From Escherichia coli (GTDB taxonomy: Bacteria; Pseudomonadota; Gammaproteobacteria; Enterobacterales; Enterobacteriaceae), in NCBI RefSeq assembly GCF_002854065.1, contig NZ_CP024147.1: DNA of 64,000 nt, one strand, 5' to 3'. Within the stretch, counting starts at the first letter, position 1. Each line of letters begins with the position of its first letter. Below are positions 1 through 25,560 of the stretch, in pieces. Below the pieces are notes generated by a model. That model was given only the letters and a program-made list of their open reading frames with translations. It was not told where the DNA came from and searched no databases. The position numbers were made by a program, and so were the translations under genes.

Positions 1-1065
1 ACCCGTCGCCAGACGAATCAGTACGGTGATCAGCCATGCCATGATGTAGGGCGAGATATTGCCGTGGGACATCAGCATGCCGATGGTGTCGCCGATGCCG
101 GTGTCGATGATGGTCTGCTTCAGCACGCCACCTGCACCGATGATCAGAATCACCATTGCAATGCTTTTCACCGCGCTTTCAAAAGCGTTCATTACCCACT
201 GCATATCGTGCCCGCGCGCGGTGCCAAAGAGTACGAATGCAACCACCATCGCAATAAACATTGCAATCGGCGAGGAACCGATAAAGTTAACCACTTCCCA
301 CGCAGGGGTATCTTTTACCAGCCAGATATTGGCGATGGTGGTAGAGATCATAATGATCGCCGGGATCAACGGCACCAGAATCGAAACGCCGAAAGAGGGC
401 AGATTATTCATATCTACCGGTTGATCTGCTTTCAGGAATGATGGCGTTGGGCGCTCAAGATTGCCGAGGAACTTCGGCAGGATCAGACCTGCGCAGATGA
501 CACTTGGGATCGTCACCAGTACGCCATAGATATAAACCATCCCCATATCCGCGCCATAAGCATTCACCAGCGCCACCGGACCCGGCTGCGGTGGGAACAG
601 TGAATGTGCGGTAGTGGCAGCTGCTACTGCCGGGATCGCCAGTTTCAGGAACGGAATTTTAGCTTCGGCGGCAATAACAATAACCAGCGGTGCTAACATG
701 ATAAAGGCCACTTCATAGAACATCGCCAGACCGAAAATCAGGCCGATGATAATCACCGACAGCTGTACATAACGCAGACCGAGACGTGCCAGCAGCGTAT
801 GCGCTATCTGGTGAGCCGCGCCGGAGTCGACCATCAATTTACCGATGACCGCACCGAACACCACGATGATAGCCAGTTCCCCCAGCGTGTTGCCGAAGCC
901 CGCTTTCATGGTGTGCAGCAGCGACATCAAATCCATGCCCGCCAGCATCCCGACGGACAGCGCCGCCACCAACAAGGCCACCATTGAATTGATTTTGAAC
1001 TTCAAATTCAGTACCAGCATCAGACCAATGCCGAATACCACCCAGAGAATGTTAAGCACATGCAT
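1..1065 (-). CDS. gntP: Gluconate permease GntP, N-terminal part (C-terminus lies beyond the window start)
   Basis: Minus-strand translation from ATG at 1065..1063 reads [23 protein letters not shown]..., a polytopic GntP-family transporter; no stop before the window edge. The plus-strand track ORFs here are antisense shadows. Confidence 0.85.
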
Positions 1066-1221
1066 AACGTTTTACCTTACCTGGTTGAACCGTTGTTATT
1101 TTGGGCGACATGTTATGTAAATTGGTCAACCATTGTTGCGATGAATGTCACATCCTCTGATCAATAACCATCGATTACCTTTTGCTGCAATTTGCAGCAA
1201 CAACCAGGAGAGTGAAATTCT

Positions 1222-1290
1222 TGTGATGTGGTTAACCAATTTCAGAATTCGGGTTGACATGTCTTACCAAAAGGTAGAACTTATACGCCA
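1222..1290 (+). promoter_or_regulatory. uxuAB promoter/operator region: TGGTTAACCAATTT palindrome (UxuR/ExuR-type operator), adjacent TGTGA CRP-like half-site, TTGACA -35 hexamer
   Basis: Palindrome tggttaacca at about 1229..1238 and ttgaca at about 1254..1259, upstream of uxuA. Assignment to UxuR/ExuR is from established knowledge of the uxu regulon. Confidence 0.5.
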
Positions 1291-1404
1291 TCTCATCCGA
1301 TGCAACGCCACGGCTGCGGTCTGGTTGTTCATCCGGATACCTAAACAACTCCAGGGTTCCGCGTCTCTTTGCTGTGGAACCCACTATGTGAAAGAGGAAA
1401 AATC

Positions 1405-2589
1405 ATGGAACAGACCTGGCGCTGGTACGGCCCAAACGATCCGGTTTCTTTAGCTGATGTCCGTCAGGCGGGCGCGACTGGCGTGGTTACCGCTTTGCAC
1501 CATATCCCGAACGGTGAAGTATGGTCCGTAGAAGAGATCCTCAAACGCAAGGCTATCGTTGAAGATGCAGGCCTGGTGTGGTCTGTCGTAGAAAGCGTGC
1601 CAATTCACGAAGATATCAAAACCCACACTGGCAACTATGAGCAGTGGATCGCTAACTATCAGCAGACTCTGCGCAACCTGGCGCAGTGCGGTATTCGCAC
1701 CGTGTGCTACAACTTCATGCCGGTGCTCGACTGGACCCGTACTGACCTCGAATACGTGCTGCCAGACGGCTCCAAAGCTCTGCGCTTCGACCAGATCGAA
1801 TTCGCTGCATTCGAAATGCATATCCTGAAACGCCCAGGTGCGGAAGCGGATTACACCGAAGAAGAAATTGCTCAGGCAGCTGAACGCTTCGCCACTATGA
1901 GCGACGAAGACAAAGCGCGTCTGACCCGTAACATCATTGCCGGTCTGCCGGGCGCGGAAGAAGGGTACACCCTCGACCAGTTCCGTAAGCACCTGGAGCT
2001 GTACAAAGATATCGACAAAGCCAAACTGCGCGAAAACTTTGCCGTCTTCCTGAAGGCGATTATTCCGGTTGCCGAAGAAGTTGGCGTGCGTATGGCTGTT
2101 CACCCGGACGATCCGCCGCGCCCAATCCTCGGCCTGCCGCGCATTGTTTCTACCATTGAAGATATGCAGTGGATGGTTGATACCGTAAATAGCATGGCGA
2201 ACGGTTTCACCATGTGCACCGGTTCCTACGGCGTGCGTGCTGACAACGATCTGGTTGATATGATCAAGCAGTTCGGTCCGCGTATTTACTTCACCCATCT
2301 GCGCTCCACCATGCGTGAAGATAACCCGAAAACCTTCCACGAAGCGGCGCACCTGAACGGTGACGTTGATATGTACGAAGTGGTGAAAGCGATTGTTGAA
2401 GAAGAACACCGTCGTAAAGCGGAAGGCAAAGAAGACCTGATCCCGATGCGTCCGGACCACGGTCATCAGATGCTGGACGACCTGAAGAAGAAAACCAACC
2501 CAGGTTACTCCGCAATTGGTCGTCTGAAAGGCCTGGCCGAAGTTCGCGGTGTCGAACTGGCGATCCAGCGCGCTTTCTTTAGCCGTTAA
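1405..2589 (+). CDS. uxuA: Mannonate dehydratase
   Basis: Track ORF 1369..2589 trimmed to ATG 1405 ([23 protein letters not shown]...), 394 aa, AGAGGAAA Shine-Dalgarno upstream; the track start is a TTG extension. Confidence 0.95.
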
Positions 2590-2669
2590 TATCCACCGGC
2601 ATGGCTGCGCGCCGTGCCGGTTCCTTCTTCCTTGCCGTCACTCTCTGAAGACGGATTCTGGAGTTTACG

Positions 2670-4130
2670 ATGACTACTATTGTTGACAGCAATCTGCCGG
2701 TTGCCCGCCCGTCATGGGATCATTCTCGTCTGGAATCACGCATTGTGCATCTCGGTTGCGGGGCGTTTCACCGTGCGCACCAGGCGCTGTACACCCATCA
2801 TCTGCTGGAAAGCACCGACAGCGACTGGGGTATCTGCGAAGTTAACCTGATGCCAGGCAACGACCGCGTGCTGATCGAAAACCTGAAAAAACAGCAACTG
2901 CTGTACACCGTGGCGGAAAAAGGCGCGGAAAGCACCGAGCTGAAAATTATCGGTTCGATGAAAGAAGCGCTGCACCCGGAAATCGACGGCTGCGAAGGTA
3001 TTCTCAACGCGATGGCGCGTCCGCAAACGGCGATTGTCTCTCTGACGGTCACGGAAAAAGGCTACTGCGCTGATGCGGCAAGCGGTCAACTGGATCTCAA
3101 TAACCCGCTGATCAAGCACGATCTGGAAAACCCGACTGCGCCGAAGTCCGCGATTGGTTACATCGTCGAAGCCTTGCGTCTGCGTCGTGAAAAAGGGCTG
3201 AAAGCATTTACGGTGATGTCCTGCGATAACGTGCGTGAAAACGGTCATGTGGCGAAGGTCGCGGTACTGGGGCTGGCTCAGGCGCGTGACCCGCAGCTAG
3301 CGGCATGGATTGAAGAGAACGTCACCTTCCCGTGCACCATGGTTGACCGCATCGTTCCGGCGGCGACGCCAGAAACCTTACAGGAAATTGCTGACCAGCT
3401 GGGCGTTTACGACCCGTGCGCCATTGCCTGCGAACCGTTCCGTCAGTGGGTGATTGAAGATAATTTCGTTAATGGTCGCCCGGACTGGGATAAAGTGGGC
3501 GCACAGTTCGTTGCAGACGTTGTGCCGTTCGAAATGATGAAGCTGCGTATGCTGAACGGTAGCCACTCTTTCCTGGCGTACCTCGGTTACCTCGGCGGCT
3601 ATGAAACTATTGCCGACACCATGACTAACCCGGATTATCGCAAAGCGGCCTTTGCCCTGATGATGCAGGAACAAGCGCCAACGCTGTCGATGCCGGAAGG
3701 TACGGACCTGAACGCCTATGCGACGCTGCTGATCGAGCGTTTCAGCAACCCGTCTCTGCGTCACCGTACCTGGCAGATTGCGATGGACGGCAGCCAGAAG
3801 TTACCGCAGCGTCTGCTGGACCCGGTGCGTCTGCACCTGCAAAACGGCGGCAGCTGGCGTCACCTGGCGCTGGGCGTGGCTGGCTGGATGCGTTACACCC
3901 AGGGCGTGGATGAGCAGGGTAATGCCATTGACGTGGTCGACCCGATGCTGGCCGAGTTCCAGAAGATTAACGCGCAGTATCAGGGCGCAGACCGCGTGAA
4001 AGCGCTGCTAGGCCTGAGCGGTATTTTTGCCGATGATCTGCCGCAGAATGCCGACTTTGTTGGCGCGGTGACGGCGGCATATCAGCAGCTGTGCGAACGC
4101 GGTGCGCGCGAGTGTGTGGCTGCGCTGTAA
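2670..4130 (+). CDS. uxuB: D-mannonate oxidoreductase (fructuronate reductase)
   Basis: Track ORF, 486 aa, MTTIVDSNLPVARPSWDHSRL...; ATG verified at 2670. Confidence 0.95.
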   Translation: MTTIVDSNLPVARPSWDHSRLESRIVHLGCGAFHRAHQALYTHHLLESTDSDWGICEVNLMPGNDRVLIENLKKQQLLYTVAEKGAESTELKIIGSMKEALHPEIDGCEGILNAMARPQTAIVSLTVTEKGYCADAASGQLDLNNPLIKHDLENPTAPKSAIGYIVEALRLRREKGLKAFTVMSCDNVRENGHVAKVAVLGLAQARDPQLAAWIEENVTFPCTMVDRIVPAATPETLQEIADQLGVYDPCAIACEPFRQWVIEDNFVNGRPDWDKVGAQFVADVVPFEMMKLRMLNGSHSFLAYLGYLGGYETIADTMTNPDYRKAAFALMMQEQAPTLSMPEGTDLNAYATLLIERFSNPSLRHRTWQIAMDGSQKLPQRLLDPVRLHLQNGGSWRHLALGVAGWMRYTQGVDEQGNAIDVVDPMLAEFQKINAQYQGADRVKALLGLSGIFADDLPQNADFVGAVTAAYQQLCERGARECVAAL

Positions 4131-23853: not shown

Positions 23854-25518
23854 ATGTTAAAACGTATCAAAATTGTGACCAGCTTACTGCTGGTTTTGGC
23901 CGTTTTTGGCCTTTTACAACTGACATCAGGCGGTCTGTTCTTTAATGCCTTAAAGAATGACAAAGAAAATTTCACTGTTTTACAAACCATTCGCCAGCAG
24001 CAATCCACGCTGAATGGCAGCTGGGTCGCGTTGTTGCAGACGCGTAACACCCTCAACCGCGCGGGTATCCGCTACATGATGGATCAGAATAATATTGGTA
24101 GCGGTTCAACCGTTGCTGAGCTGATGGAGAGTGCCAGTATTTCGCTGAAACAGGCGGAAAAAAACTGGGCGGATTACGAAGCGTTGCCGCGTGACCCGCG
24201 TCAGAGCACCGCCGCAGCGGCAGAGATCAAACGTAATTACGATATTTATCACAATGCGCTGGCGGAGCTGATCCAACTGTTAGGTGCAGGCAAAATCAAC
24301 GAGTTCTTTGATCAGCCGACCCAGGGATATCAGGACGGTTTCGAGAAGCAGTATGTGGCTTACATGGAGCAAAACGATCGGCTCTATGATATCGCCGTCA
24401 GCGATAATAATGCCTCCTACAGCCAGGCGATGTGGATTCTGGTGGGCGTGATGATCGTCGTACTGGCAGTCATCTTCGCCGTCTGGTTCGGTATTAAAGC
24501 CTCGTTGGTAGCGCCAATGAATCGCCTGATTGACAGCATTCGTCATATTGCAGGCGGCGATCTGGTGAAACCGATTGAGGTGGATGGCTCTAATGAGATG
24601 GGGCAACTGGCAGAGAGTTTGCGCCATATGCAGGGAGAGCTGATGCGTACCGTCGGTGATGTGCGCAACGGGGCCAATGCCATCTATAGCGGTGCCAGCG
24701 AAATCGCTACCGGCAATAACGATCTCTCTTCGCGCACCGAGCAACAGGCCGCTTCGCTGGAAGAGACGGCAGCCAGCATGGAGCAACTGACCGCAACGGT
24801 GAAACAGAACGCCGAAAATGCGCGCCAGGCCAGCCACCTGGCGTTAAGTGCTTCTGAAACGGCGCAACGCGGCGGCAAAGTGGTAGATAACGTGGTGCAG
24901 ACTATGCGCGATATCTCCACCAGTTCGCAGAAAATCGCCGATATTATCAGCGTAATTGACGGCATTGCCTTCCAGACCAATATTCTGGCTTTGAACGCGG
25001 CGGTTGAAGCAGCGCGCGCGGGTGAGCAAGGGCGCGGTTTTGCGGTGGTCGCGGGTGAAGTGCGTAATCTGGCCCAGCGCAGCGCTCAGGCGGCTCGTGA
25101 AATTAAAAGCCTGATTGAAGACTCGGTGGGGAAAGTAGATGTTGGCTCTACGCTGGTCGAAAGCGCAGGGGAAACAATGGCGGAGATTGTCAGTGCCGTG
25201 ACCCGCGTGACGGACATTATGGGCGAAATTGCTTCTGCTTCTGATGAGCAGAGCCGTGGTATCGATCAGGTTGGCTTAGCGGTTGCTGAGATGGACCGGG
25301 TAACTCAACAGAACGCTGCGCTGGTGGAAGAATCTGCCGCTGCCGCCGCCGCGCTGGAAGAGCAGGCCAGTCGCCTGACCGAAGCTGTGGCAGTGTTCCG
25401 GATTCAGCAACAGCAGCAACAGCAGCGTGAAACATCGGCTGTGGTAAAAAACGTGACGCCAGCTACGCCGCGTAAAATGGCAGTGGCAGATAGCGGGGAG
25501 AACTGGGAAACGTTTTAA
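23854..25518 (+). CDS. tsr: Methyl-accepting chemotaxis protein I (serine chemoreceptor)
   Basis: Track ORF, 554 aa, ends with the NWETF pentapeptide; carries a 7-residue poly-Q tract just before the C-terminal tail. Confidence 0.95.
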
Positions 25519-25527
25519 TCGCCATAA

Positions 25528-25560
25528 AAATGCCCGATAAGCAAAATGTTATCGGGCATA
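25528..25560. terminator. Bidirectional intrinsic terminator between tsr and yjjL
   Basis: gcccgataa-gcaaaatg-ttatcgggc hairpin flanked by A/T runs. Confidence 0.6.

Follow-up and report, generated by a model that had tools for sequence, protein, structure and literature searches.

The gene tsr, which encodes the serine chemoreceptor Tsr, contains in the Escherichia coli DNA analyzed here (a stretch of 64,000 nucleotides from contig NZ_CP024147.1, referred to below as the window) a run of seven glutamine codons at the beginning of the segment that links the receptor body to the C-terminal pentapeptide NWETF, the docking site of CheR and CheB. We consider it probable that this run is a two-copy, in-frame 9-bp repeat at the start of the tether, that it gains and loses whole units, and that the resulting length differences constitute a near-neutral polymorphism. 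In the following, a run of n glutamines is denoted Qn, and positions are those of the window, where tsr and all features within it lie on the plus strand.

The tract spans positions 25405–25425, in frame within the open reading frame (ORF) 23854–25518, and its codons (cag caa cag cag caa cag cag) specify residues 518–524. A preliminary description of this DNA had placed a Q7 tract at this site in a Tsr protein ending in NWETF, which agrees with our analysis. Two copies of CAGCAACAG can be distinguished, the first at 25405–25413 (Q518–Q520), delineated from the sequence, by Tandem Repeats Finder (TRF), and by alignment, and the second at 25414–25422 (Q521–Q523), which is missing in K-12 as seen in an alignment with K-12, CAR, 23AR0806, and RM14723. 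They are followed by a terminal partial unit, CAG at 25423–25425 (Q524), that is found in all alleles. TRF describes positions 25405–25426 as a repeat of period 9 with 2.4 copies and 100% matches, and gives a period-3 reading with 78% matches as an alternative. Among the stop-free stretches of at least 150 amino acids in the window, Q7 is the longest homopolymer, and the run is far beyond chance; under the assumption of independent residues, about 7e-6 runs of at least seven glutamines are expected per protein of Tsr composition, and about 4e-4 per E. coli proteome.

When the 3′ part of tsr in the window is aligned with K-12 MG1655, CAR, 19-5, and 23AR0806, the lengths differ by whole CAGCAACAG blocks. 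K-12 MG1655 has a single CAGCAACAG followed by CAG (Q4, 551 amino acids), in line with the shorter glutamine run given for K-12 Tsr in the preliminary description, while the window has two (Q7, 554 amino acids), 23AR0806 three (Q10, 557 amino acids), and RM14723, A13, and Z1323HEC0355 four (Q13, 560 amino acids). All 26 sequenced tsr alleles conform to (CAGCAACAG)n+CAG with n = 1–4, and the sole other indel in tsr across this panel affects a polyalanine run. The variable unit is 9 bp and not a trinucleotide, and the tract is an in-frame coding variable-number tandem repeat (VNTR), with at least two head-to-tail units, a copy number that varies by whole units (n = 1, 2, 3, 4), and homoplasy. 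Every allele seen stays in frame and keeps the NWETF end, the units being 9 bp and rarely 6 bp. A phase-variable on/off switch was considered and rejected, as all tract alleles are in frame.

The lengths that exist were also evaluated by exact-sequence look-up of synthetic Qn variants on three natural Tsr backgrounds in a collection of about 15 billion proteins, an approach chosen since exact protein look-ups are independent of which codon is duplicated. On the O157:H7-type background, Q4 was present on 154 contigs, Q7 on at least 1000, Q9 on 17, and Q10 on 129, and exact look-up returned no Q3, Q5, Q6, Q8, Q11, or Q12. The corresponding numbers for the background of the window protein were 127 contigs for Q4, at least 1000 for Q7, 6 for Q9, and 7 for Q10, with Q5, Q6, Q8, Q11, Q12, and Q13 not found by exact look-up. 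On the K-12 background, for which the native Q4 was not queried, Q7 occurred on 8 contigs and Q10 on one, and exact look-up found no Q1, Q2, Q3, Q5, Q6, Q8, Q9, or Q13. Samples of 60 and 29 rows from complete genomes contained no span differences of 3 bp, and the single-triplet steps that characterize trinucleotide (CAG) instability were seen on none of the backgrounds where they were tested. The only allele outside the series is Q9, which is Q7 with a 6-bp CAACAG duplication. It arose at least twice, as on the O157 background the first unit carries the duplication, whereas on the window background it is found in the second. A plausible reason for the composite unit slipping rather than the triplet is that the CAA interruptions limit the CAG runs and weaken the hairpin; pure CAG runs are capped at two codons, and the hairpin energy is −3.2 kcal/mol for the Q13 tract compared with −6.0 kcal/mol for pure (CAG)13.

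The window allele is the norm of the species, and K-12 carries a minority short allele. A 64-nt query spanning the tract was searched against 5,426 complete E. coli genomes and gave matches in 5,342. Q7 accounts for about 4,060 of these (76%), calculated as 5,225 genomes with at least 80% coverage minus 1,137 Q4 genomes and 28 joined expansions. Q4 was counted with a specific 36-nt query that has no 28-mer in common with other alleles, and is present in 1,208 of the 5,342 genomes (22.6%); in 1,137 of these the flanks are of the K-12 type, while the other 71 share the REA flank of BEN2908. Laboratory strains such as K-12 derivatives, BL21, and MC4100 make up roughly one in four of the Q4 rows sampled, so that Q4 is somewhat over-represented. 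Q10 and Q13 together occur in at most 69 genomes (at most 1.3%), with 25 Q10 and 3 Q13 confirmed on the plus strand; expanded alleles on the minus strand, where the matches are split in two places, are bounded at no more than 41, and both that were checked are Q10. About five genomes remain unassigned, these being the rest of the 117 with coverage below 80%. An evenly spaced sample of 60 rows is composed of 45 Q7, 12 Q4, one Q13, and two partial matches, and the exact Tsr protein of the window is present on at least 1000 contigs. The preliminary description had allowed that K-12 and most strains might share an identical Q7; this does not hold, K-12 being Q4, though Q7 is indeed found in about 76% of the genomes. 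Its framing is in fact reversed, since the Q7 of the window is the majority allele of the species and gives the family-wide length of 554 amino acids, and Q4 of K-12 is the deviant.

The position of the tract relative to conserved parts of the receptor was assessed by aligning 81 sequences, namely the window Tsr and 80 orthologues. Phe515 is invariant, Arg516 and Ile517 are at least 90% conserved, and conservation collapses after residue 517. These three residues (25396–25404) are the last conserved ones of the receptor body and constitute the tether anchor (PMC4692393, PMC10561060). They are followed by a non-conserved C-terminal tether, residues 518–549 (32 residues in the window protein; 25405–25500), delimited by the conservation profile, the lengths in 80 species, and the literature. 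Between Ile517 and Asn550, the linker is unconserved save for the near-invariant pair Arg540-Lys541 (25471–25476; at least 90% conserved), which in orthologues of about 25 genera lies some 8–10 residues ahead of the pentapeptide as ..PRK.. or ..ARK... At the extreme end of the protein, which reads ...GENWETF, the pentapeptide (25501–25515) has Trp551, Glu552, and Phe554 invariant, and Asn550 and Thr553 at least 90% conserved. The C-terminal linker in which the preliminary description had located the tract thus coincides with the non-conserved C-terminal segment, and as judged from the alignment, the tract starts exactly at the junction of body and tether, right after Ile517. For K-12 Tsr, residue 517 has been described by the Parkinson laboratory as the last conserved one before a 34-residue non-conserved C-terminus (PMC4692393), and the Yuan laboratory places the tethering point at Arg516/Ile517, from where the flexible chain is 30 residues long in K-12 Tsr compared with 34 in Tar (PMC10561060). 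In general, the linker of Tsr and Tar is regarded as unstructured and about 30–35 amino acids long (PMC7390727, PMC10561060, PMC4692393). An aromatic motif xZxxZ defines pentapeptide-bearing receptors (PMC7390727), and the window Tsr has it, in the form of NWETF, at the C-terminal end after a non-conserved linker. In K-12 Tsr and Tar, CheR and CheB bind the pentapeptide and the length of the tether influences methylation (PMC7390727, PMC10561060), and the tether raises their local concentration. By analogy with this literature, CheR and CheB are expected to dock at NWETF of the natural Tsr alleles as well.

The 80 orthologues were collected in a cross-genus scan with the Tsr-specific N-terminal 260 residues and one genome per species, covering about 25 genera; the species representative of E. 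coli, Escherichia albertii, and Escherichia fergusonii are not among the loci, and the closest Escherichia are two divergent genomes with 93–95% identity. None of the 80 Enterobacteriaceae species orthologues has a glutamine run longer than three. At the position of the tract, Citrobacter, Salmonella, Enterobacter, and Leclercia have QQEQQR/K, and the divergent Escherichia sp. E1V33 and E. coli SCPM-O-B-8794 have QQ(T/A)QQRQHE. Counted from F-R-x to the pentapeptide, the tether has 32 residues in 47 of the 80 species and 31–33 residues in 72, and the protein has 554 amino acids in 47. The Q7 allele of E. coli aligns without gaps to the orthologues of other genera, with a 32-residue tether and 554 amino acids, and the tether is 29 residues for Q4 (K-12), 32 for Q7, 35 for Q10, and 38 for Q13. 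Across the 80 species, the length of the predicted tether is conserved though its sequence is not. In Trabulsiella, both orthologues combine a Q3 run and an SWESF variant of the pentapeptide with the shortest tethers of the set (29 residues, as in K-12). One contig labeled as Chryseobacterium sp. 18061 (CACSKA010000015.1) carries a tsr that is typical of Enterobacteriaceae, with 80% identity in the sensing domain, and probably represents assembly contamination or mislabeling.

The 26 tsr alleles, a panel selected to be rich in variants, were placed on a neighbor-joining tree built from 1,656 columns (106 variable sites) after exclusion of those with indels, and at least ten changes in tract length are required on it. 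Q4, which the Fitch method assigns to the root, was not taken as the ancestral length, as the panel over-represents variants. BEN2908 (Q4) and FDAARGOS_1289 (Q7) are only two single-nucleotide polymorphisms apart, and both have a REASAVV flank that is not present in K-12. The window (Q7) and 94-3024 (Q10) have a 24-residue flank (VKN...SGE) in common, HS (Q10) and K-12 (Q4) have an identical 30-residue tail, and DEF2, LF82, and SC434 (Q10) have KMAMADS in common with the Q13 strains. Two tract lengths are found on five of the eight 30-residue tail haplotypes, and several lengths coexist on three identical full-length protein backgrounds. Because flanks are shared between alleles of different length, and several lengths occur on identical backgrounds, the pattern points to gain and loss of units that recur in situ rather than to single events moved by recombination. 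With regard to stability within lineages, all sampled K-12 derivatives are Q4, and three Q13 isolates (from dog, sheep, and human) have one and the same protein.

In the mechanism that we propose, replication slippage or unequal exchange between perfect copies would add or remove whole 9-bp units and so produce the series Q4/Q7/Q10/Q13 with its four tether lengths, and Q9 would result from slippage at the internal CAACAG sub-repeat, a less frequent event. The homology available for slippage is 12 bp in Q7 and 3 bp in Q4. Each unit would place the docking site of CheR and CheB three residues further along the chain from the receptor body. The contour length of the tether is 0.36 nm per residue (PMC10561060), and in Tar with tethers of 22–46 residues, the CheR peak shifts linearly by 0.128 ± 0.048 nm per residue; Tar tethers in this range remained measurable in Förster resonance energy transfer (FRET) adaptation assays (PMC10561060). 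The distances quoted for the methylation sites of Tsr from the tethering site are 4.95, 6.0, and 7.05 nm, a spacing of about 1.05 nm (PMC10561060). Extended to Tsr by analogy, one unit would correspond to about 1.1 nm of contour length and would shift the most probable position of CheR by about 0.4 nm. K-12 strains, which are Q4, are the standard for robust serine chemotaxis. Because the predicted effect per unit is small, and K-12 with its Q4 allele is chemotactically proficient, the length polymorphism is probably nearly neutral. There is perhaps weak stabilizing selection for the family-typical 32-residue tether, for which the conservation of this length and the majority of Q7 despite an expected bias toward loss leave room.

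A number of points weigh against this interpretation. We infer slippage as the mechanism from the allele pattern alone, and likewise infer the size of the functional effect and the near-neutrality for natural Tsr alleles by analogy; the effect per residue is extrapolated from deletions and insertions in Tar that were made at the opposite end of the tether. Intragenic recombination could explain part of the apparent recurrence on the tree, and the genome counts are skewed by which genomes get completed. Furthermore, AlphaFold2 (AF2) monomer models draw the C-terminal helix through the tract (residues 394–527 for Q7 and 394–532 for Q13), with a mean predicted local distance difference test (pLDDT) score of about 64 and a predicted template modeling (pTM) score of about 0.35, a confidence too low to decide between helix and tether. 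Should this helix be real, the contribution of a unit would be about 0.45 nm of rigid helix instead of about 1.1 nm of flexible chain.

As for the origin of the length differences, three possibilities besides gain and loss of 9-bp units have to be weighed together with their evidence, of which one concerns the data themselves. Repeats are known to cause indel errors, and the differences could in principle be an assembly or sequencing artefact across low-complexity sequence, but reads are much longer than a tract of 21 bp, errors would not fall in clean 9-bp units, and thousands of complete genomes, assembled independently, contain these alleles (about 4,060 for Q7), which are stable within lineages. 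The probability of an artefact is vanishingly small. The preliminary description had proposed a slipped-strand trinucleotide polymorphism. Of this proposal, the polymorphic length and the altered tether length stand, while the step is a 9-bp unit and not a triplet. Classical CAG slippage by one glutamine codon per step is compatible with a tract that contains only CAG and CAA codons, with the period-3 reading listed by TRF, and with length changes that are all multiples of three. However, the period-3 reading has only 78% matches, CAA breaks the run into at most two CAG with a weaker hairpin, the single-codon lengths Q3, Q5, Q6, Q8, Q11, and Q12 are absent where tested, and the samples are free from 3-bp span differences; codon-wise slippage is accordingly very improbable. 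Another explanation is that each length arose once and was then scattered by lineages exchanging tsr 3′ ends through homologous recombination. E. coli recombines often, and the tsr tree may differ from the genome tree; the Tsr of ATCC 11775 and MS7163 is the CAR protein (WP_000919536.1), and their tsr DNA is that of K-12 outside the indel columns. Yet flanks only 7–60 bp from the tract differ within one length and match across lengths (REA with Q4 and Q7, VKN...SGE with Q7 and Q10, KMAMADS with Q10 and Q13, and the K-12-type tail with Q4 and Q10), different lengths coexist on three identical protein backgrounds, and Q9 was reached by two different duplications. A single origin of each length is therefore improbable.

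The remaining alternatives concern what a unit does to the receptor. The tract might be a helical extension of the receptor body, in which case a unit would move the anchor by about 0.45 nm along the helix axis and leave the flexible chain unchanged. Polyglutamine next to coiled coils can adopt a helical conformation, and both AF2 models end the helix 2–3 residues past the tract. On the other hand, the models are low-confidence monomers of an obligate dimer (with pLDDT dropping over the tract, down to 46–61 in the 521–530 block), the literature starts the unstructured tether at Ile517 (PMC10561060, PMC4692393), and the orthologous segment is devoid of sequence conservation, and we regard the helical extension as possible but doubtful. 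Alternatively, the tether length may be under selection, with the repeat as a mutational knob by which lineages would set how far CheR and CheB reach, and thereby the kinetics of serine adaptation, and Q7 favored as restoring an optimal length of 32 residues. Such adaptive tuning would agree with a tether that is tightly conserved over about 25 genera despite sequence drift, with a majority allele in E. coli that equals the mode, and with Q7 being in majority even though loss of a unit should be mutationally easier than regain (12 compared with 3 bp of homology). In agreement with such a bias, Q4 is present on 127–154 contigs of Q7-native backgrounds compared with Q7 on 8 contigs of the K-12 background, although contig counts reflect clonal sampling and are not event counts. 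Engineered tether lengths in Tar also shift the CheR distribution linearly (PMC10561060). Nevertheless, about 22% of the genomes, K-12 included, are Q4, and the predicted shift per unit is only about 0.4 nm, and we find adaptive tuning unlikely. The more far-reaching proposal, that selection holds the length near 32 residues throughout the Enterobacteriaceae, that the 9-bp repeat of E. coli tunes the reach of CheR and CheB, that the tether of K-12 is atypically short, and that the alleles differ measurably in speed or precision of serine adaptation, appears more unlikely still. We therefore favor a near-neutral polymorphism caused by gain and loss of 9-bp units.

The gene itself (23854–25518) encodes 554 amino acids followed by the stop codon, and was assigned on the basis of the ORF, NCBIfam model NF011615, Pfam domains, identity to K-12, and neighborhood. 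The window protein scores 1222.7 bits with NF011615, the NCBIfam equivalog for Tsr (cut-off 947), and residues 1–554 align over the 554-position profile; with the Tar model NF011622 the score is 752.7, which is under the cut-off of 900. The domain order is TarH (PF02203, residues 1–176), HAMP (PF00672, residues 217–263), and MCPsignal (PF00015, residues 327–484), the protein identity to K-12 Tsr is 99%, and the neighbors are those in MG1655, with btsT upstream (an ORF for a 721-residue BtsT-like protein) and lgoT downstream (an ORF for a 453-residue LgoT-like protein). By equivalog score, domain order, identity, and neighborhood, the window Tsr has the properties expected for an orthologue of K-12 b4355, and we identify it as Tsr, methyl-accepting chemotaxis protein I. 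Gene content beside tsr differs by strain, with either lgoT (window and K-12) or a gene for a TRAP transporter permease downstream, and in some strains hpaR about 120 bp upstream where K-12 has btsT. In PCN061 (NZ_CP006636.1), tsr is split by IS1A, and the two pieces match the window tsr with 100% identity over the whole length of the latter; in strain a7 (NZ_CP122496.1), the first 212 bp are all that remains of the gene. A perfect 11-bp inverted repeat with an 8-nt loop, ATGCCCGATAA...TTATCGGGCAT, is located at 25530–25559, 12 bp past the tsr stop codon. As read directly from the sequence, it falls between the convergent tsr and lgoT, and is probably a shared transcription terminator.

Length variation in tsr is not restricted to the glutamine tract. 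A second repeat-length polymorphism affects the polyalanine run at 25336–25353 (Ala495–Ala500) in methylation helix 2, between the methylation sites Glu493 and Glu502. Eight alanines are found in four complete genomes (19-5, 600029, PEC422, and JNEC-KY176) and on a second protein background (P0007), seven in one genome (ETEC1703), and five in P0082; otherwise the run of six is invariant or nearly so over the 80 species. Indels of 1–2 alanine residues inside a coiled-coil helix are likely to disturb the heptad register. Protein P0101 (568 amino acids, 5 contigs) has a 14-residue tandem duplication in methylation helix 1, corresponding to exactly two heptads, by which methylation sites are duplicated. 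The HAMP domain is altered in two further proteins, through a tandem duplication of 16 residues in P0024 (570 amino acids) and through a single additional histidine in P0077. In a search for full-length Tsr homologues, the best 120 are E. coli/Shigella variants only, and the unusual lengths among them are duplications unrelated to the glutamine tract.

Tsr of K-12 is among the most intensively modeled receptors, and quantitative models of adaptation use the tether length explicitly, set at 30 residues for Tsr and 34 for Tar (PMC10561060). Roughly three-quarters of complete E. coli genomes nonetheless have a tether that is three residues longer than that of K-12 and equal to the length conserved in the family, which means that the reference strain for chemotaxis carries an atypical short allele. 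The natural series Q4/Q7/Q10/Q13 provides ready-made, isogenic-style variants for tests of tethered-enzyme models, and is a clean, small example of CAA-interrupted glutamine tracts that change by composite units and not by single codons. In the literature searched, we found no description of the Tsr glutamine-tract polymorphism, which is weak evidence of novelty as most subscription journals are outside its coverage, and no record of the tsr repeat as a typing marker.

The most closely related system is the Tsr/Tar tether with its NWETF pentapeptide as characterized by the Hazelbauer, Parkinson, and Yuan laboratories, which is the same element in the same gene. That literature treats only the K-12 allele, with a 30-residue chain from Ile517, and neither the natural length series nor the three additional residues of most E. 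coli came up in the papers searched. The engineered Tar series of 22, 29, 34, and 46 residues (PMC10561060) likewise varies the number of residues between body and pentapeptide, but whereas the changes in Tar are artificial, comprise 5–12 residues, and are located beside the pentapeptide, those in the Tsr alleles are natural, proceed in three-residue steps, and are located beside the receptor body. In kind, the Tsr tract is a familiar in-frame coding tandem-repeat polymorphism in a disordered linker, and involves no new mechanism. Coding VNTRs of the type used in multiple-locus VNTR analysis (MLVA) have units that are multiples of 3 bp, perfect short tandem units, and recurrent in-frame changes of copy number. 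The Tsr repeat is similar in these respects, but differs by a low copy number (1–4) and an apparently slow rate of change. In eukaryotic polyglutamine tracts with mixed CAG and CAA codons, the CAA interruptions stabilize the repeat. The Tsr tract resembles these in being a CAG-coded glutamine homopolymer where CAA interruptions suppress single-codon slippage, but is bacterial, very short, and built from a composite 9-bp unit, with nothing to suggest aggregation or toxicity.

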